IMG/VR virus record: IMGVR_UViG_3300028783_000001
Location: 1 to 64,000 of that record
DNA: 64,000 nt
Reading direction: 5' to 3' (one strand)
Source of the DNA: a virus
Part shown: positions 32,314 through 42,266 of the stretch, one piece after another
Position numbering within the stretch: the stretch's first letter is position 1
How the letters are laid out: each line of letters opens with the position of its first letter
The notes under the pieces: model-generated
The model's input: the letters and a program-made list of their open reading frames with translations, nothing else
Databases searched by the model: none
Told to the model about the DNA's origin: nothing
Program-made: the position numbers and the translations under genes

Positions 32314-32537
32314 CGCACGTCGAAGTTGGGGAAACATAATGGGCATTCACGAACCGAGCAGCCAGCTGATCAAAGCGGTGGAAGATAGGTATATTCATGA
32401 ATGGGATAATGGTCATCAGCCTGAGCTCATACGTTGGATGATCAAGACGATTGATGATGAGCGCCGTCGCGAGCAGGCCGCTCACTCTAAGCGCGCCAAG
32501 CCAGCGGCTTGCATTAAATCCTGATGGAGGTAGAGAC

Positions 32538-34868
32538 GTGAAACAGCCGATGCCTGTAAAGACAGGTTCCGCGCGTAAGCTAGTGGCGAAGCCCTTTTTG
32601 GCAAAGGTTGTGACCAGGCTCACGCCGAAGCAGGTTGCCGCGCTCGTTCAGTTAGGTGAAAAGGGCGTTGTAGCTCTGCTTCGCAAATACGACGACGCCT
32701 ACTACAACAAGGAAGCGCCGTTGGTCGAAGACTCGCGCTACGACGCCATTCGCGAGTGGTTCGCAGAGACCTATCCTCGCAACTCCTACAACGCAAGTGT
32801 TGGAGCACCGCTTCCAGCCAAAATTCAAAAGGAAGAGTTGCCCATCATGATGGGCAGCCTCGGCAAGTTGCGGCCGGCAGATGTTGCCGGCTGGATGCGC
32901 GACGTCGAGAAGGTAATTCCTCAGCCGCATGGTTGGATGCTTCAGCCGAAGTTTGACGGCAGTAGCGTGCTTCTGAAGTACGTGCCGGGAAAGACGGGGC
33001 TCACGTTGGCGAAGGCGTGGCGTCGCGGCAATGGTGACGTTGGTGGTGATGTTACTGCTACAGCGAGGCTCGTACAAGGCGTGCGCCGTGTATTGAACGC
33101 TGCAAGTAGCGTCGACCCAAAGGGCACCTACCTTGTCCGTGTCGAGGTTGTGATGCACCGCTCAATCTTCGACACCTACTATGGAGCAAACGCGCCGAAG
33201 GCTGCTGAGGACACTGACAAACTCGGTAAGGTATACACCGATCCGAGGTCGCTGTGCAATGGCCTCCTCAATCGCATGGATGCTAAGGCTTCCGCAGTAC
33301 AGCTTGGTCGCTGTACGGCCATCGCCTACTACATATTCCGGTGGAATGGGAAAACCTGGGTTCGTCCCACCAACGCTTCCCAGGAACAGCTCCAGCTAAC
33401 CCAGCTGGGGTTTACGACGGGGATGAATCCCACTCGCTATACTGCTGGGCACTTCAAACTGGCCAAGTGGGCTAAGGATGGTGACCTGCCGATGAGCCGT
33501 ATGCTCCCGGCCCATTCAATCGATGGGAATATCGGAAGCCTGTGCAAGTTTGACAAGACGCCGACGATTGCTGAGATTGTCGAGCGTCTGAACACGATCA
33601 AGCGCTCTATCGACGTTCCAATCGATGGGCTCGTGATCCAGCCAATGCTAAACGCGCCCTTCCAGAAGAAGGGAGACCACTTGGCGAAGCATCCATTCTT
33701 CGTCAAGTCGATCAAGCTAGACGCGCACGAACAAGATCACGTTGATACCAAGGCCGGCGTTATCAACGCCGACATATCCAAGCGTGGGTTGCTGAAGCCC
33801 GTTCTCGAACTGAACCCGCCGGTAATGTTTGGTGGCGTCGAGGTTACAAACGTCACGCTAAACAACTTCGCTCATGTGGTCAAGTGGGGGCTCCGGCCAG
33901 GTAGGCCGGTGCGCATCGTCCGAAGCGGCGACGTCATACCGCGCCTGGTTGCGGTGTTCGACAAGGGCAAGTGGATGCCGCTGCAGCTTCGTAAGACAAC
34001 CAAGATGGGTGACGGCATGGAGGCGTCGCGCATAGTTGCCCTACCAGGGATCAGCGATCCCAAGATTGCAGCGTCGCTGCCGAAGGTGTGTCCCGCGTGC
34101 AAGACGAAGCTCACGTGGACCAAGACGAATGGTAAGCAGATCGACCTCTGCTGTACAAACGTTAAATGCCCCGGTCGCCACGGTCAAGCGGTGGTGAGCT
34201 TCTTCCGCACGCTCGGTATCGAAGACGTAGCGGGCGCGACGATCAACGACATGGTCGCGGACGGCATGAATACGGTTCAGAAGATCCTGCGTGGCGCGAC
34301 CGCTGAGCGCCTCGCGAAGTTGGAAAGGTATGGAGAGAAGAAGGCTAAGACCGTGTCGGTAGCGATTGCTGGAATCCTAAAAAATAAGCCGTTGGCGAAG
34401 GTGATGCACGCGAGCGGCATATTCAGCTCACCGACTTTCTCTATGGGCGAAACAAGGCTGCAAGCAATCGTCGACGGTGTTGGCGCAGGCAAGATTGCCC
34501 GTGAAAGCGACATGATAATCCGTCGTAAGCTGGCGACGCTGAAAGGTCTCGGCCCTTCTGGAATCGATCTCTTCATCCAGAAGCTGGGGGAGTGGCGTAA
34601 GTTTTACGATACGATCAAGGATTTACACACAGAGAGCAGCGGCCCCAAGACGTTGAAGGGCATCACGGCGTGCTTCACCGGGTTCCGCTCACCGGAGATG
34701 GAGGGCTATATCATGTCTCGTGGCGGTCGCGTGGCCGGCATGAGCAAGCTGGTATCAGTTCTTTTTGCAGCATCATCTTCGAAGAAGACGGCCAAGGCTG
34801 ACGAGTATGGAATCCCAGTCGTAACTGAAGGCAAGGCTTGGGAGTGGCTGAAAGAGAGGGGAGGCTAA
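32538..34868 (+). CDS. ligA: NAD+-dependent DNA ligase
   Basis: YDDAYY...DSRYD (domain Ia), KFDG, RRGNG..G.DVT, IDGLV, RSGDVIP, CPAC..C..C Zn finger, HhH, C-terminal BRCT (CFTGFR). Confidence 0.92.
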   Translation: MKQPMPVKTGSARKLVAKPFLAKVVTRLTPKQVAALVQLGEKGVVALLRKYDDAYYNKEAPLVEDSRYDAIREWFAETYPRNSYNASVGAPLPAKIQKEELPIMMGSLGKLRPADVAGWMRDVEKVIPQPHGWMLQPKFDGSSVLLKYVPGKTGLTLAKAWRRGNGDVGGDVTATARLVQGVRRVLNAASSVDPKGTYLVRVEVVMHRSIFDTYYGANAPKAAEDTDKLGKVYTDPRSLCNGLLNRMDAKASAVQLGRCTAIAYYIFRWNGKTWVRPTNASQEQLQLTQLGFTTGMNPTRYTAGHFKLAKWAKDGDLPMSRMLPAHSIDGNIGSLCKFDKTPTIAEIVERLNTIKRSIDVPIDGLVIQPMLNAPFQKKGDHLAKHPFFVKSIKLDAHEQDHVDTKAGVINADISKRGLLKPVLELNPPVMFGGVEVTNVTLNNFAHVVKWGLRPGRPVRIVRSGDVIPRLVAVFDKGKWMPLQLRKTTKMGDGMEASRIVALPGISDPKIAASLPKVCPACKTKLTWTKTNGKQIDLCCTNVKCPGRHGQAVVSFFRTLGIEDVAGATINDMVADGMNTVQKILRGATAERLAKLERYGEKKAKTVSVAIAGILKNKPLAKVMHASGIFSSPTFSMGETRLQAIVDGVGAGKIARESDMIIRRKLATLKGLGPSGIDLFIQKLGEWRKFYDTIKDLHTESSGPKTLKGITACFTGFRSPEMEGYIMSRGGRVAGMSKLVSVLFAASSSKKTAKADEYGIPVVTEGKAWEWLKERGG

Positions 34869-37166: not shown

Positions 37167-37631
37167 ATGAACATGGGTTTCTTTGACAACTTCTTCGGTA
37201 GCGCGAAACGCACTATCGCAGTCTACACCAACGACTACACCTTCCTGCATGCGGCTACCGCTGCTGCAGCGTTGGTCATCAATGCCGACGGCGTGGTCGA
37301 GAAGGCCGAGGTCGATTCGGCCCTGGAGGGTTTGCTCAACAATGAGATTCTCAAGGGCTCGTTTAAGAGCCTGGAGATTTCATCGTCGCTGACGGAGGCC
37401 ATCGGCCGGTCAAAGACTCGCTCCGGCAAGGTGGTTCTGAACCGTCAGCTGGAAGACCTCGCGGATCGTCCCGAAACGCAGCGCCAGGACGTGTTCCTGA
37501 TCGCCGCCGACGTTGGTGATACTGACAAGGAAACTGACGACCAACCCGGTATCGGCACCGCCGAACTAGCCGTTTTGAACGCCGTCGGCAAGCTGCTCGG
37601 CCTCGACGCTAACAAGCTTCTCGCTGCCTAA
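37167..37631 (+). CDS. terB: TerB-family protein
   Basis: AAAALVINADGVVEKAE; helical TerB pattern ending E...L...LGLD. Confidence 0.8.
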   Translation: MNMGFFDNFFGSAKRTIAVYTNDYTFLHAATAAAALVINADGVVEKAEVDSALEGLLNNEILKGSFKSLEISSSLTEAIGRSKTRSGKVVLNRQLEDLADRPETQRQDVFLIAADVGDTDKETDDQPGIGTAELAVLNAVGKLLGLDANKLLAA

Positions 37632-37750
37632 CAGGGAGTGAGGTAGGGAGTCGAGCGGCGTTGGTGATGGCGTCTCATTTAGGTGAGCGTGAGCCTTGAG
37701 TGATCGGGTTTTATGGTGCCGCTCGACTTTCCTTAAACTGGAGACGCCTT

Positions 37751-38401
37751 ATGTTCCACACTCTAATGCTACTCATCGCAATCGTTTGGATTAACCTACT
37801 GTTATCTGGTGACAACGCGATCGTCATAAGCATGGCGTGCAGGAATATTCCTCTAGAGCAGCGGAGGGTGGGGATTGGTATTGGCGCTGGCGTCGCCGTT
37901 GCCCTACGACTCGTGCTCCTGTTCGCGGCGTCGTGGGTCCTACTTGTTCCAGGAGTTAAGTTGGCTTGTGGAGCCTTCCTCTTCTGGGTGGCGCTTGGTA
38001 TGCTACCCACGGGCGTTGAGGAACCTGTAGATGTATCGAAGGCACCTGGCAAGCTGCTAGCTGCGGTATGGACGGTGGCCATCGCAGACGTTACGATGAG
38101 CACCGACAACGTCGCTGCCGTCGCAGCAATCGCCAGCGGCAATTACACGCTGCTGGTGATCGGCATGCTGATCAGCATTCCGTTTGTCGTGATTGGCGCA
38201 ACGCTAATCTCGAAGGTGCTGGAGTTGTTTCCGATAATGGTTGTCGCTGGTGCAGCCCTTCTGGGCTACCTTGCGGCGACTACACTAGCGAGCGATCCGC
38301 TCGTCGCCATACCTTCTCCGTACTCAGTATTTAGCGGACTGGTAATCGCGGCAATCTTCGCAATGCTTGGCTTCCACCGACAATTGGTGCTGAGTAAATA
38401 G
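37751..38401 (+). CDS. terC: TerC/YjbE-family membrane protein
   Basis: INLLLSGDNAIVISMACRNIP, IADVTMSTDNVAAVAA, GMLISIP. Confidence 0.88.
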   Translation: MFHTLMLLIAIVWINLLLSGDNAIVISMACRNIPLEQRRVGIGIGAGVAVALRLVLLFAASWVLLVPGVKLACGAFLFWVALGMLPTGVEEPVDVSKAPGKLLAAVWTVAIADVTMSTDNVAAVAAIASGNYTLLVIGMLISIPFVVIGATLISKVLELFPIMVVAGAALLGYLAATTLASDPLVAIPSPYSVFSGLVIAAIFAMLGFHRQLVLSK

Positions 38402-38480: not shown

Positions 38481-38882
38481 ATGACTGGCAAGAATCACAG
38501 CAACGATCACGTCGCTCCTCCGGCCACCACCGAGACTCCGGTGACGGAAACTCCGGTCGAGGTCGTGCAGACGGCACAGACCGAAACGCAGCCGACGGCT
38601 GAGGCAACCACAACCGAGGTTCCGGTTACTGGTCCGGTGCCGGACGAAACGATTGCCCAGGCGACGGCTGAGACGATTAAGGTCACGCTGATTGGCGCGC
38701 TCGATGCGCTCTATGAGGGACCTGCCGGCAAGACTCTCAAGGACATGATCCCTGAGCTCGCCGGCACGAAGAAGTATCAGGCGCGCGAAATCATCGACGG
38801 CAAGGCGAAGATGATCAGCCAAGTCGTTCCTTGGATGCACTCTGCCACGATCAAGACGGTTGAGCACGCAGTTCACGGGTAG
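38481..38882 (+). CDS. putative ubiquitin-like (beta-grasp) protein with T/E/P-rich N-terminal tail and C-terminal Gly
   Basis: Last ~68 aa IKVTLIG...PAGKTLKDMIPEL...IIDG...ATIKTVEHAVHG-stop follow the ThiS/MoaD/Ub pattern; two genes upstream of an E1. Confidence 0.6.
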   Translation: MTGKNHSNDHVAPPATTETPVTETPVEVVQTAQTETQPTAEATTTEVPVTGPVPDETIAQATAETIKVTLIGALDALYEGPAGKTLKDMIPELAGTKKYQAREIIDGKAKMISQVVPWMHSATIKTVEHAVHG

Positions 38883-38909
38883 TCGTGATTGCAATTAGGT
38901 AAGTAGCGT

Positions 38910-38940
38910 AGCGTCGTGGGATTCTGTCCCACGACGCTTT
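38910..38940 (+). terminator. stem-loop (partial terminator) after the Ubl gene
   Basis: AGCGTCGTGGGA-TTCTG-TCCCACGACGCT then TT. Confidence 0.6.
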
Positions 38941-38961
38941 CATCGTTTCAAGGGGAACACC

Positions 38962-40473
38962 ATGGCTACTAGAAAACCAAGAGCTGCCGCCGCCGCACTC
39001 GAGATACCGCTCTACTTTAGAGATGGCTCGCTTAGAGTTCTTTCTGCAGAAAGAATTTGTGAGAGGGATAGGCCCGAATTTTTGATGATCATGAGTGCCC
39101 TCGGTATCGCGCCGATGAGCTACGAGAGTGCACAGAAGCTAATGGGTAGCGACGAAGATTCTGATGATGCAGCCCACTATAAGTCTAAGCGGCGTAAGCC
39201 AAAGCAGGAAGCTACCCTCGGTGATATCCTTGCACGCGCCCTAAACTCTAGTGATGGTACAGGTTCGGGTGGTGTAGAAGACACGACCGCAATCGTCGTG
39301 GACATCGCAAACGCGGCGACTTCTAAGCCAGTCAAGGTTGAAAAGCCTAGCGCCTACTATCCCGTATATCGATTTCATCGTGAGGCAATAAACCTCTCAT
39401 ATAGCCATATGGAGATTCTTAACTGTAACTTCGTGAAAGACTTAATCGCAAACGGTACCTACCTAATCCATACTCATGACAGGTACATTCGCGCAACGAC
39501 TCTTGAGGAGATTTCCGACGTCGAGACGCTTACACGGCTATCGCAGAAGATCTTTGACTGCAACCGCAGCTTCGATATGAAGCGCTACGACTACCTCCGC
39601 ACGCTAGTGTTTACGAGCGTCGTGGTTGATGGGGTTCACTGTAACAAGCGTCCCTTGGAGCTGCCAGCTGGCTGGCGTATTATTCCTGCATCTGAGATTG
39701 GGGATAAGCACGCTGATGATGTCCTATACGTCAACGTGGGTGGTCGTACCCTCTACTTTGCTGGCCTCAGATCGCGTTCACAGGCCAGAGCCATGATTAC
39801 CGATATCGTGCTAAACCATAATATCAGGTCGGAAGAGTTTGCGGCCATATGGGCCGGTGAAACGCTAAAGTCGATAGCGGACGAGCTGGCGTCTGCCGTA
39901 TGGCGTAGGAAAGACTATCTGCAGAAGATGCAGATAGAGGTAATATCAGAATCGCGCCTCAAAAAGATGCACGACATGTTGAAGACGGGTGGTTCAGCAT
40001 GGGTTACCAGCATGGTCGAGCAGCTGATGAACGCCGGGTTTGCGAGCAGTAGGTTCGTAGCCGCCGGCATCATCATGACCACGGGGGACATGTACATAAA
40101 TATCGGCGATCACGAGACTGAGCGAGAGACTCGTTATATCGGAAAGTATGAGGTCATTCTGGGAATGTCCAAGTCGGTGGCAATTCGCAATATCGCCAGC
40201 CCACGGAAGGGAGTTAATCACCCGGTGTTCGACGACGACAATTGCCTCGGTGGGTTTGGTGAGATCCTCACGAGGTGCTTCAGGACCGACGACTACCTAA
40301 CGCTTGGCCTATCGATCCTGGCAATGATCCAGCACTTCAATCCAAGCTATCTGGAAAATTTCAAGGAGTGGCCTTCGGAGATTCCTGCCGAGACATACGT
40401 GTGTAAGATACACACGCTTTACGGTGAAAGCGTTGAAGATTATAGTGGTGATGAAGAGGAAGACGAGGGGTGA
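38962..40473 (+). CDS. large protein with putative C-terminal E2/UBC-like domain
   Basis: GKYEVIL...NHPVFDDDNCLGGFGEIL...LSILAMIQHFN; Cys codon 40243-40245; sits between Ubl and E1. Confidence 0.55.
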   Translation: MATRKPRAAAAALEIPLYFRDGSLRVLSAERICERDRPEFLMIMSALGIAPMSYESAQKLMGSDEDSDDAAHYKSKRRKPKQEATLGDILARALNSSDGTGSGGVEDTTAIVVDIANAATSKPVKVEKPSAYYPVYRFHREAINLSYSHMEILNCNFVKDLIANGTYLIHTHDRYIRATTLEEISDVETLTRLSQKIFDCNRSFDMKRYDYLRTLVFTSVVVDGVHCNKRPLELPAGWRIIPASEIGDKHADDVLYVNVGGRTLYFAGLRSRSQARAMITDIVLNHNIRSEEFAAIWAGETLKSIADELASAVWRRKDYLQKMQIEVISESRLKKMHDMLKTGGSAWVTSMVEQLMNAGFASSRFVAAGIIMTTGDMYINIGDHETERETRYIGKYEVILGMSKSVAIRNIASPRKGVNHPVFDDDNCLGGFGEILTRCFRTDDYLTLGLSILAMIQHFNPSYLENFKEWPSEIPAETYVCKIHTLYGESVEDYSGDEEEDEG

Positions 40474-40530
40474 TAGGGGCTCATGAGCCGTGTGGGACGT
40501 CCCACACGGCTAGACTCATAGGGAAACGAC

Positions 40531-41244
40531 ATGACATACGATCTTAGTAGGATTCGGCACGTGGTCGACGCTGACAAGTTTGATGGTGGGATAGCCGTCG
40601 TCGGCTGCGGTGCAATTGGTTCCCGTGTTGCTCACCTCTTATGCGACATGGGGTTTGGGGAAAAGTTGTGCCTCTATGATCCCGATGTGGTGGAGATGCA
40701 CAACTTGGCGTCGGCCACCTACGAGCTGTCTGATATTAGAACGTCAAGCCCTTACCCGAAGGTTGCCGCGCTTCGCTATCAACTGGAGCGCAAGTGGGGT
40801 GAGCCCATACGCTACTCAAATACGATGAGGATAACGCGTCGAGGCCAGTGTGGTCATAAAACGGTATTCACCTGCCTCGATAGTATGGCCGAGCGAAAGA
40901 AGGTGATGGGAACCGCTCTATTCCTTGATGGCCACGCGAAGTGGGTCTACGACGCCCGCATCACAGCTACGACTATCTTCGCCATCGGGTATGACATAAC
41001 GGACCCCAAGCAGCACCGCCATTACATGGAGGAGTTGTATGACGACCCGGATCCAGCGCAGGACGCTCAGATGGGCGGCTGCAATCAGAAAACGAGCGTT
41101 GCCTCGACGGCAGCCATCGCGGCCTCTCTCGTCGTGCAGCTGTTCATGAACCACGTGAACAAGGTCGACGGGCCAAATGAAATCGTCGTCTCATTACGTG
41201 ATTGGACGATGGATGCGCGTTTCTATGAAAAGACGCCTGAGTAA
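40531..41244 (+). CDS. E1/ThiF-family adenylyltransferase
   Basis: VVGCGAIGS, DPDVVEMHNL, KVAAL, CLDS, YDAR; candidate catalytic Cys in GGCNQ (41080-41082). Confidence 0.88.
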   Translation: MTYDLSRIRHVVDADKFDGGIAVVGCGAIGSRVAHLLCDMGFGEKLCLYDPDVVEMHNLASATYELSDIRTSSPYPKVAALRYQLERKWGEPIRYSNTMRITRRGQCGHKTVFTCLDSMAERKKVMGTALFLDGHAKWVYDARITATTIFAIGYDITDPKQHRHYMEELYDDPDPAQDAQMGGCNQKTSVASTAAIAASLVVQLFMNHVNKVDGPNEIVVSLRDWTMDARFYEKTPE

Positions 41245-41264
41245 ATAAGTAATAAGAGGTCGAA

Positions 41265-42266
41265 ATGAAACAGCCAATCCCATTCAAAGTTGGACGTTTC
41301 TATGTTTACGTCCAGTATCGTGATGCAGCCATGAGGACTCCCTTCTATGTTGGTAAGGGCAAAGATCGTCGGTGGGAATATCATGAATGGCGCGCGGCAT
41401 CGACCAAACACAGATCGCATCACTTGAACATCATCCGGCAGTTCCAGCGTGAGGGACTGCCGGTCCCCAAGAGGAAGGTCAAGACTGGTCTGACTGAGCA
41501 ACAGGCTTTTGATTTGGAGGTCATGCTGATCGCTAAGTACGGGATTGAGCGTGATGGTGGTTTATTAGTGAATGAATCGTATGGTGGCGATGGTGGAACT
41601 ACCGGATATGTGCATACGCGTAAATCGAGGAAAAAGATTGGTGCTGCATCAAAAGTGAATCATGCTAATCCAGCGACGAAGGCAAAGCATGCGGCATCAT
41701 CAAGAGCTGCCCACGCACGACCAGACGTAAAGGAAAAGCATCGTGCGGCGACTAAGGCAGCTCTTGCTCGACCAGAAGTAAAGAAGCGGCATATGGCGGG
41801 TAGCAAAGCAGTTATGTCGAGTGCTAAGATGCGAATTAGGACTGGCAGGGCTTCCAGAATTTCATGGGCACGACCAGAGGTTAAAGCCAAACGTCGTGCG
41901 ACTGATGCTTTACCAGAGACAAAACGAAGACGGAGCGAGGCGTCAAGAACTGCATTAGCACAACCTGGTGCAAGGAAAAAACAGCATGATGGGTTAGTGA
42001 AATGGTGGGCACGCAGGCGCGGTAAAAATAAGGAGAGACGCGATGAGAGACCTCAAGGAATGCCTGCAGGGCAACGTCACCTTTGTGGGGTATCGCAAAG
42101 GGATTCTTATATATACAAATGCTCCAATGGCTTTCTATTTGAAGTGCCGACCAGCGAAACAGGCGACGCCACCTTTCAGGCGACGGAGCGGGCTATGCTG
42201 CTCATGAATTGGATCAAGGCCGGCATCGCCTACATCGCGAAGCAGGGCGGCGAACTAAACGGGTAG
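41265..42266 (+). CDS. GIY-YIG-type homing endonuclease with basic repeats (3' end fused to another gene by frameshift)
   Basis: FYVY...FYVGKG..RR, E..LI..YG...LVN...GGDG; repeats ARPDVKEK/ARPEVKKR/ARPEVKAK. Confidence 0.8.
   Translation: MKQPIPFKVGRFYVYVQYRDAAMRTPFYVGKGKDRRWEYHEWRAASTKHRSHHLNIIRQFQREGLPVPKRKVKTGLTEQQAFDLEVMLIAKYGIERDGGLLVNESYGGDGGTTGYVHTRKSRKKIGAASKVNHANPATKAKHAASSRAAHARPDVKEKHRAATKAALARPEVKKRHMAGSKAVMSSAKMRIRTGRASRISWARPEVKAKRRATDALPETKRRRSEASRTALAQPGARKKQHDGLVKWWARRRGKNKERRDERPQGMPAGQRHLCGVSQRDSYIYKCSNGFLFEVPTSETGDATFQATERAMLLMNWIKAGIAYIAKQGGELNG
42043..42266 (+). pseudogene. small phage gene broken by a +2 TA slip
   Basis: AAGGAG RBS, MRDLKECLQGNVTFVGYRKGILI continues as YKCSNGFLFEVP...WIK only if one TA is removed from CTTATATATAC (~42106-42116). 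Confidence 0.6.

Follow-up and report, generated by a model that had tools for sequence, protein, structure and literature searches.

Does a bacteriophage encode its own machinery for ubiquitin-type protein conjugation? The question is raised by three consecutive genes in IMG/VR virus record IMGVR_UViG_3300028783_000001, of which we analysed the first 64 kb (positions 1 to 64,000, hereafter the window); the whole record is 168,737 bp long, with a CheckV completeness of ~66%. The source is an uncultured jumbo phage from peat, several studies of peat and permafrost metagenomes contain near-identical sequence, and nearly all genes in the window lie on the + strand. An original prediction, made from the window sequence, had read the three genes as a ubiquitin-like protein (Ubl), a conjugating enzyme (E2) and an activating enzyme (E1). 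The list of open reading frames (ORFs) confirms three consecutive + strand frames at the predicted positions, separated by gaps of 79 nucleotides (nt; ORF1 to ORF2) and 57 nt (ORF2 to ORF3). The genes and the two domains discussed below are as follows, with protein lengths in amino acids (aa).

38481-38882, + strand: ORF1, candidate Ubl gene, 133 aa, ending ...HAVHG and then stop
38667..38879, + strand: putative β-grasp domain of the Ubl candidate, collinear with three orthologs
38962-40473, + strand: ORF2, E2-like gene, 503 aa, containing HPVFDDDNCLG
39988..40431, + strand: UBC/RWD-like domain of ORF2 (residues 343-490), from an AlphaFold model and structural search
40531-41244, + strand: ORF3, minimal E1 (ThiF family) gene, 237 aa, with GCGAIG at residues 25-30

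We read this locus as a probable phage-encoded, three-component Ubl conjugation cassette, and put the probability of that reading at roughly 0.6. Judged by the relatives of the E1, the homologs of ORF2 and the synteny of the trio in other phages, the three ORFs are genes and not chance frames.

The minimal E1 and the recurring trio

The firmest member of the set is ORF3. It passes the cut-off of the Pfam ThiF family (PF00899) with an expect value (E) of 7e-13, and a profile of its family retrieves ThiF from the Protein Data Bank (PDB) at E 7e-15, followed by Uba1, Uba7, UBA5, MccB, Cap2, MoeB and BubCD, the last of these a weak relative at E 6e-6; PaaA is among the PDB relatives too. Aligned with Escherichia coli ThiF by hhalign (probability 98.2%, E 3.6e-14), the phage protein matches over 194 columns, the whole domain, and its Cys184 (codon 41080-41082) is placed onto ThiF Cys184, a residue that we take to lie on the crossover loop, the site of E1 catalytic cysteines. 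The phage E1 is a single domain of 237 aa, collinear with the 251-aa ThiF. Eleven positions (G25, G27, G30, D50, D52, E55, N58, K77, D117, R122 and R143) do not vary among 23 phage E1s, and all 22 full-length members keep Cys184. The protein has no CxxC pairs, so the zinc-binding pairs by which ThiF and MoeB are recognised are lacking; the CxxC region of ThiF aligns here to HYMEEL. The E1/ThiF protein with a GxGxxG motif, a distal Cys and no CxxC that had been read from the sequence is thus what the Pfam match, the ThiF alignment and the conserved residues return.

Because ThiF homology, the invariant adenylation residues and Cys184 occur together, we regard the E1 as real, competent-looking and unusually small. 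As far as sequence comparison goes, the assignment of ORF3 as a genuine minimal E1 is solid, the enzyme looks catalytically competent, and Cys184 is the predicted crossover-loop acceptor of the activated C-terminus. Membership in the PRTRC system was considered and rejected, the NCBIfam PRTRC_ThiF match reaching only E 5.6e-4, far below the cut-off. Three sequence relatives of ORF3 at ~50% identity lie on large contigs; the closest, P0004 and P0005, are carried by contigs of 180 kb and 206 kb, where closer Ubl orthologs would be expected.

The synteny search suggested alongside the original prediction recovers the trio of Ubl, E2-like protein and E1 in three further phages, giving four divergent lineages: the window phage, Xanthomonas phage PhiXhv-12, and the IMG/VR jumbo phages L006 (140.9 kb) and L007 (205.9 kb). 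An E1 relative of 31% identity is encoded by the culturable jumbo phage PhiXhv-12, by its sisters PhiXhv-15 and -16, and by phages Ep026 and Ep032; the GenBank annotation of the PhiXhv-12 E1 reads only 'thiamine biosynthesis protein'. In the PhiXhv-12 locus a DNA ligase is followed by small genes, an ORF of 140 aa, one of 892 aa and ThiF, with a topoisomerase downstream; hhalign places the 892-aa protein in the E2-like family with a probability of 98.9% and E 2e-17. In L006 and L007 the order is E2-like gene, E1 and small protein; across the four lineages the arrangement thus varies between Ubl-E2-E1 and E2-E1-Ubl. With the E1s of L006 and L007 as queries, 17 viral loci were retrieved. An E2-like member lies within ~2.5 kb of the E1 at five further loci (L011, L012, L019, L020 and L022), none of which has an obvious small protein ending in G or GG. 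Megablast and tblastn searches of a phage collection with the window cassette and the 503-aa protein gave no match, nor did the query P0010, and the metagenome scans and several of the viral scans returned no match either.

The predicted E2-like protein and the candidate Ubl

Profile libraries (Pfam, PHROGs, NCBIfam and PADLOC) give no match for ORF2. HMMER, run exhaustively against 1.84 billion representative proteins, found 24 distant homologs, which have the last ~200 residues in common; none of the 24 contains a domain recognised by the profile libraries, and the profile of the E2-like family matched PDB sequences only through low-complexity stretches of the acidic tail. The protein is laid out as a variable N-terminus, a conserved middle domain, a long helix, a UBC-like C-terminal domain and an acidic tail. 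Along the family alignment the conserved motifs follow in the order RY-x-G-x-(F/Y)-E, R-N-x-A-x-P, (H/N)-P-H, C-(L/V/I)-G-x-(F/Y) and D-Y-Y before the acidic tail.

The AlphaFold (AF2) model computed from the family alignment has a predicted local distance difference test score (pLDDT) of 84-97 over residues 343-490, where the elements run helix, β-sheet, a long loop with H420-P421 and Cys428, and three helices. In this model Cys428 (codon 40243-40245) sits between strand 406-410 and helix 432-442, 8 residues past H420. VIA was used for an exhaustive structural search against 48,161 PDB representatives; of the 50 chains that matched best, at least 44 have the UBC/UEV/RWD fold, a tally made from PDB entry titles. 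The matches cover ORF2 residues 336-481, with 90-120 residues aligned at Z 3.9-5.4, and the best of them include Ubc13, UBE2S, UbcH5, Ubc9, UBE2K, UFC1, Atg10, CdnG-E2 and the E2 domain of Cap2 (7to3, Z 4.8) from the cyclic-oligonucleotide-based antiphage signalling system (CBASS). Conservation in the family, at an overall identity of 16-40%, is concentrated on the same loop: C428 and P421 are kept in 35 of 35 members and G430 in 34 of 35, while N410 and G394 are present in 33/33 aligned sequences. The resemblance of HPVFDDDNCLG to a UBC active site, first noticed in the sequence alone, is in keeping with the model, the fold search and a cysteine without exception in the family. A UBC-like fold of the ORF2 C-terminal domain is supported by this model and the fold search, as is the placement of Cys428, predicted to be catalytic, between the last strand and the following helix, in what would be a UBC-type active-site loop; by all profile comparisons the E2-like sequence family is new.

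Two members of the E2-like family differ in construction from ORF2. The PhiXhv-12 homolog (L003 3187-5865), with 892 aa and 36 Cys, has very Cys-rich N- and C-terminal extensions, which suggests that the E2-like core is fused to zinc-finger or RING-like modules. In L007 (3805-7407), tandem E2-like paralogs of 589 and 600 aa precede one E1 and one Ubl, an arrangement that fits two target specificities served by one activation system.

ORF1, the candidate Ubl, consists of an acidic, low-complexity segment (residues 1-62) and a compact domain (residues 63-133), and Gly133 lies immediately ahead of the stop codon, as expected of a Ubl that is already mature when made. A word-indexed search found no homolog of ORF1, the Ubl orthologs have no Pfam match at E up to 10, and the profile of the Ubl domain returned nothing from the PDB and no significant hhalign alignment with E. 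coli ThiS. The ESM Atlas model of ORF1 (pLDDT 0.37) is uninformative. As ORF1 has neither homolog nor family match, and its model is uninformative, the evidence for the Ubl reading is comparative. At an identity of 22-28%, the small proteins of the four lineages have HG, GG, GG and GG as their last residues, with the stop codon next. Their N-terminal segments are 62-108 residues long, consist to 88-98% of T/A/S/P/E/Q/V/G/N, hold 0-1 Lys or Arg and have a net charge of -8 to -27; their C-terminal domains, of 68-71 residues (at 8463-8666 in L006 and 8837-9040 in L007), align collinearly, with V6, G10, G21, T23, D44 and the terminal G of the domain alignment invariant. The window Ubl is the most divergent of the four orthologs, and the case for its orthology is made more by position, architecture and the terminal Gly than by sequence.

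A structural lead comes from the L006 ortholog. The stored ESM Atlas model of its domain has its nearest neighbours in MoaD/ThiS/SAMP2 clusters (template modelling score (TM) 0.74-0.78 over 67 residues) and lies near the EccD N-terminus and the TGS domain of ThrRS as well, the TM of the neighbours overall being 0.72-0.83 by query. This model offers a β-grasp fold of the Ubl family as a lead, from which we infer the same fold for the window ORF1. A complex prediction from the E1 alignment and Ubl residues 60-133 scored 0.00 with the fold of the partner uncertain, and speaks neither for nor against binding.

Tandem arrays of small proteins occur at two of the loci that have E1 and E2-like pairs: in L012 (5665-9614) and L022 (23-1733 and 8464-10500), 8-9 small paralogs stand beside such pairs, with conserved C-termini (V/I)-x-G-(G/S)-(I/L) in L012 and (D/A)-F-(V/L/I) in L022. 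These paralogs could serve the E1 as alternative substrates, or could be multi-copy families that have nothing to do with it.

The MoaD/ThiS-like neighbours lead to a first alternative, in which the E1 makes a C-terminal thiocarboxylate on the small protein, in the manner of ThiS, MoaD, TtuB or CysO; the thiocarboxylate would supply sulfur to a phage-specific metabolite or to a nucleic-acid modification, and the 503-aa protein would be a sulfur relay or scaffold acting through its conserved Cys. ThiF is the closest solved relative of the E1, the two align end to end, and Cys184 corresponds to the ThiF Cys184 used in sulfur transfer. The phage E1 is moreover minimal, ThiF-sized and without a dedicated Cys domain, and its small partner ends in Gly, as in the ThiF-ThiS and MoeB-MoaD pairs. 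Unlike those pairs, however, the phage E1 lacks a zinc-binding CxxC, and the absence of thiamine and molybdopterin genes noted nearby extends to the whole 168.7-kb record, in which ThiG, MoaE, rhodanese and cysteine desulfurase, that is, acceptors and sulfur donors, were not found. These absences weaken the sulfur-carrier reading, with the limit that the record is ~66% complete and that the host could supply such proteins. The phage set also adds what no known sulfur-carrier pathway uses, a conserved UBC-fold partner with an invariant loop Cys, and a carrier with a long acidic disordered tail, for which there is no precedent among sulfur carriers. We consider sulfur transfer distinctly unlikely as the function of the trio.

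A proposed conjugation relay weighed against known systems and other readings

In the conjugation reading, the E1 would spend ATP on adenylating Gly133, the free C-terminus of the Ubl. Once activated, the Ubl would move onto Cys184 in the crossover loop of the E1, then onto Cys428 in the UBC-like domain of the 503-aa protein, and would finally be joined to a lysine of a host or phage protein. The large N-terminal and middle regions of ORF2 would probably choose the target, in the manner of an E2/E3 hybrid. Both thioester steps, the conjugation to proteins and the biological role are what we infer. No processing protease would be needed, because the Ubl is made mature, and since the available record encodes no deconjugating enzyme either, tagging would be one-way during infection. 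We speculate that the polyanionic disordered tail may turn the Ubl into a tag that acts by charge or by steric disruption of its targets. A fuller proposal, that jumbo phages carry a complete Ubl system without a deubiquitinase (DUB) and irreversibly tag host or viral proteins during infection, with the tail as an acidic 'brush' that would, for example, disable DNA-binding or immune proteins, is tentative, and we give it somewhat less than an even chance. Its components would be a minimal ThiF-like E1, an E2 family not recognised before and lodged in a large protein that selects the target, and a Ubl with a polyanionic disordered tail of 60-110 residues; if it holds, the virus, and not just its bacterial host, would wield ubiquitin-type tagging as a weapon.

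A number of results weigh against the conjugation reading. For the Ubl candidate, ORF1 matches no Ubl sequence family in Pfam (to E 10) or NCBIfam; its single-sequence AF2 model is all-helical and of low confidence (pLDDT 57) and was not used; BLASTP relates it to its orthologs only weakly (E 0.005); a leave-one-out hidden Markov model ranks it first of 870 frames in the window, yet at E 0.27; and it terminates in His-Gly instead of Gly-Gly. The Ubl reading of ORF1 draws its support from the four-lineage architecture, the G/GG end and the structural neighbours of the L006 ortholog, and the β-grasp fold of the window protein itself is putative. For the E2-like protein, none of the E2 sequence profiles (Pfam UQ_con and Prok-E2_A-E; PADLOC E1-E2) matches ORF2 or its 24 homologs, the Z-scores of the structural matches are modest, the two top matches are non-catalytic RWD domains (Knl1), and Foldseek with the whole 503-aa model found no significant match in the PDB; a Foldseek search of BFVD with the same model likewise gave none. 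The HPN-like His is not invariant, position 420 being H in 22/35 members and N in 10/35. Finally, no E3 or DUB was identified.

Several of these points would also be expected if the C-terminal domain of ORF2 were a non-catalytic RWD/UEV module and the genes were co-located without forming a relay. The Knl1 matches, the uniformly modest Z-scores and the missing E2 family match fit this view, as does a weak match of the Xanthomonas phage homolog to Pfam Knl1_RWD_C (E 0.15). Against it, a loop Cys kept in every family member together with an invariant Pro seven residues upstream is no feature of RWD or UEV domains, and the linkage to an E1 with an intact Cys and to a small protein ending in G or GG survives rearrangement of the gene order. 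That the Cys in the presumed UBC active-site loop never varies speaks for a catalytic protein, and we regard a passive RWD module as very unlikely.

The conjugation reading supposes a protein target. The target could instead be a lipid, as in the joining of Atg8 to phosphatidylethanolamine (PE) through Atg3, a small-molecule amine or an MccB-type nucleotide, with the E2-like protein as carrier. MccB and PaaA are among the PDB relatives of the E1, Atg10 and UFC1 among the fold matches of the E2-like domain, and this phage has TerB/TerC-like, membrane-associated genes immediately ahead of the cassette. The single-domain, 237-aa E1, however, has no MccB-type N-terminal peptide-clamp domain; the presumed substrate is a folded domain of ~70 residues with a G/GG end and not a short peptide; and none of the other three lineages has TerB/TerC genes linked with its cassette. 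A non-protein target is, in our estimate, highly improbable.

Conjugation to a protein could serve Bil-like superinfection exclusion or virion maturation, with the same chemistry directed at rival phages or at the particles of the phage itself. The Bil systems (types I/II; classes 6d/6c of Iyer et al. 2006) share several features with the phage set: Ubl, E2 and E1 are encoded adjacently, the C-terminal Gly of the Ubl is reactive (in the phage, predicted so), the E2 combines a UBC fold with a catalytic Cys (both predicted for the phage), and some BilA Ubls carry disordered N-terminal extensions (PMC10557695). The characterised bacterial Ubl systems, Bil and CBASS Cap2, are antiphage (PMC10557695), and exclusion genes are frequent in jumbo phages. 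On the other side, a JAB peptidase, CapH/CapP regulators and other defence-operon signatures are absent; the neighbours are of replication type (ligase upstream, and topoisomerase downstream in PhiXhv-12); and the cassette is kept across virulent jumbo phages, unlike patchy defence islands. These points are not decisive, and we rate exclusion or maturation as unlikely.

The proposed conjugation cassette can be told apart from each known system. Bil always includes a JAB-family DUB (BilC), in the order Ubl-E2-DUB-E1, whereas no JAB gene was found in the phage cassette or in the ~66% complete record. BilD is large, with an inactive and an active adenylation domain, an inserted Cys domain and a Zn site, in contrast to the single-domain phage E1 (PMC10557695), and the E1-E2 models of PADLOC align with the phage E1 only over residues ~20-90 (the Rossmann loop). 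BilB has a Cys...His or CEHH motif, and the phage family has (H/N)-P-x6-8-C-(L/V/I)-G within a protein of 400-900 aa; the owner, too, is here a virulent-type jumbo phage and not a bacterium. CBASS type II (Cap2/Cap3) likewise employs E1 and E2 chemistry of bacterial origin, and Cap2 is found both among the E2-fold matches and among the sequence relatives of the E1. In Cap2, however, E2 and E1 are fused into one protein, which conjugates a CD-NTase and has the JAB protease Cap3 as its partner; the phage genes are separate, include a dedicated Ubl, and come without a CD-NTase or JAB. Bub is, like the phage set, a diverged prokaryotic E1/E2/Ubl set, from which the phage differs in that both its E1 and its E2-like protein keep invariant cysteines (PMC11601596) and no peptidase is fused. 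With no JAB or other DUB, a single-domain E1 without zinc and a new E2 sequence family, the cassette is not Bil, CBASS or Bub.

Eukaryotic E2 enzymes provide a more distant comparison. The order of UBC fold elements is the same, an HP(N)-like motif precedes the loop Cys by 6-8 residues, and the C-terminal tail is acidic; the match to Rad6 involves the low-complexity tail only and is no evidence of homology. Unlike the eukaryotic enzymes, with which no sequence homology is detectable, the phage domain ends a much larger protein. Its family does not keep the Asn of HPN and has instead an invariant Asn, N410, at the end of the preceding strand.

The absence of JAB that had been noted for the window holds for PF14464 and PF01398 in both the window and the 168.7-kb record; as the record is ~66% complete, the missing JAB, ThiG and MoaE are no proof of absence from the phage. 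Homologous proteins of ~170 aa are encoded near the cassettes of L006 (3357-3917) and L007 (10186-10680), with 38% identity (E 1e-24), a Cys...His pattern and a weak Peptidase_C39 match (E 0.04). They could be a deconjugating peptidase. We did not count this papain/C39-like gene as part of the cassette, since the window record has no homolog of it. A separate type of phage module pairs an E1 with JAB: in L002 (5860-7205; IMGVR_UViG_3300028829_004116), a 203-aa ThiF stands beside a 264-aa protein with the JAMM motif HTHPFGYAFWSGTD, and no E2-like gene is present.

To our knowledge, the ubiquitin-type conjugation systems characterised in prokaryotes so far either protect the host against phages (CBASS Cap2, Bil and Bub) or are archaeal and of SAMP type. 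The chemistry proposed here, an E1-E2-Ubl relay, is known; what is new is that a phage owns it, that the E1 is minimal, that the E2 sequence family has no precedent, that a DUB is missing and that the Ubl has a tail. No description of the cassette was found in the 2006 survey of prokaryotic ubiquitin-like systems (PMC1779556), the 2021 comparison of jumbo phages (PMC7824862), the 2026 jumbo-phage review (PMC13282480), the PhiXhv-12 paper (PMC13340338) or full-text literature searches. If the conjugation reading is right, the same chemistry would be in use on the viral side, one more E2 sequence family would be known, and no E1 yet coupled to an E2-like partner would be smaller. It would also raise the question of what a phage gains by fixing a polyanionic disordered tag to proteins. 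Since cassettes are present in Xanthomonas phages PhiXhv-12, -15 and -16, which are culturable (PMC13340338), that question is directly testable by genetics and proteomics. The pairs of E1 and E2-like protein in distant phages that have no evident G/GG-ended Ubl hint at a wider phage family of C-terminal activation.

Candidate transcription signals and neighbouring genes

The intergenic signals around the trio comprise two copies of a recurring motif and two RNA hairpins, the latter given with their minimum free energy (MFE).

38391..38400, + strand: TGAGTAAATA motif, 81 nt ahead of the start of ORF1, a candidate for a phage promoter or an intergenic signal
38910..38938, + strand: RNA hairpin in the gap between the Ubl and E2-like genes, 13-bp stem, MFE -24.4 kcal/mol, z -5.0
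40486..40511, + strand: RNA hairpin in the gap between the E2-like and E1 genes, 11-bp stem, MFE -25.1 kcal/mol, z -4.0
41238..41247, + strand: second exact copy of TGAGTAAATA, which overlaps the stop codon of the E1 gene and marks the downstream edge of the unit

The motif at 38391, to which the original prediction had drawn attention, is real and non-random: the window holds 16 copies with at most one mismatch, all on the + strand, against 2.4 expected, and none of 100 shuffles reaches 16. Example sites are 9013, 15311, 36785, 37083, 38391, 41238, 44907, 47336 and 59916, and the usual placement is at or just past a stop codon, 20-90 nt ahead of the next start. TGAGTAAATA is similar to TATAAATA, which we take to be the core of the T4 late promoter, and is likely a phage-specific promoter or gene-boundary signal. 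The exact copies at 38391 and 41238 bracket the trio, consistent with one transcription unit; together with the short gaps, they indicate that the three genes are probably transcribed as a single unit.

None of 200 shuffles folds as well as the hairpin at 38910-38938. Both hairpins are strong and GC-rich and have a common GTGGGA...TCCCAC core, with no clear U-tract after either; roles in RNA stability or attenuation are possibilities. In RNA libraries of four studies there are contigs that match parts of each of the three genes exactly, with partial coverage only. Because DNA carry-over is possible, they provide a weak hint that the cassette is expressed.

Upstream of the cassette lie an NAD-dependent DNA ligase with a BRCT domain (32451-34868), a TerB-like gene (37167-37631; PHROG 632, E 3.5e-16) and a gene for a TerC-family membrane protein (37700-38401; Pfam E 1.4e-36). 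A DNA ligase also stands ahead of the PhiXhv-12 cassette, so the region is broadly syntenic; the TerB and TerC genes, as said above, have no such link in the other lineages. Downstream, a GIY-YIG homing-endonuclease-like gene (41265-42266; PHROG 314, E 3e-10; LEM-3-like GIY-YIG, E 4.5e-5) starts 20 nt past the E1 stop codon. Further on, amid small phage ORFs, 44103-44909 encodes a 268-aa protein of the amidinotransferase/DDAH fold (Pfam DDAH_eukar, E 2e-8).

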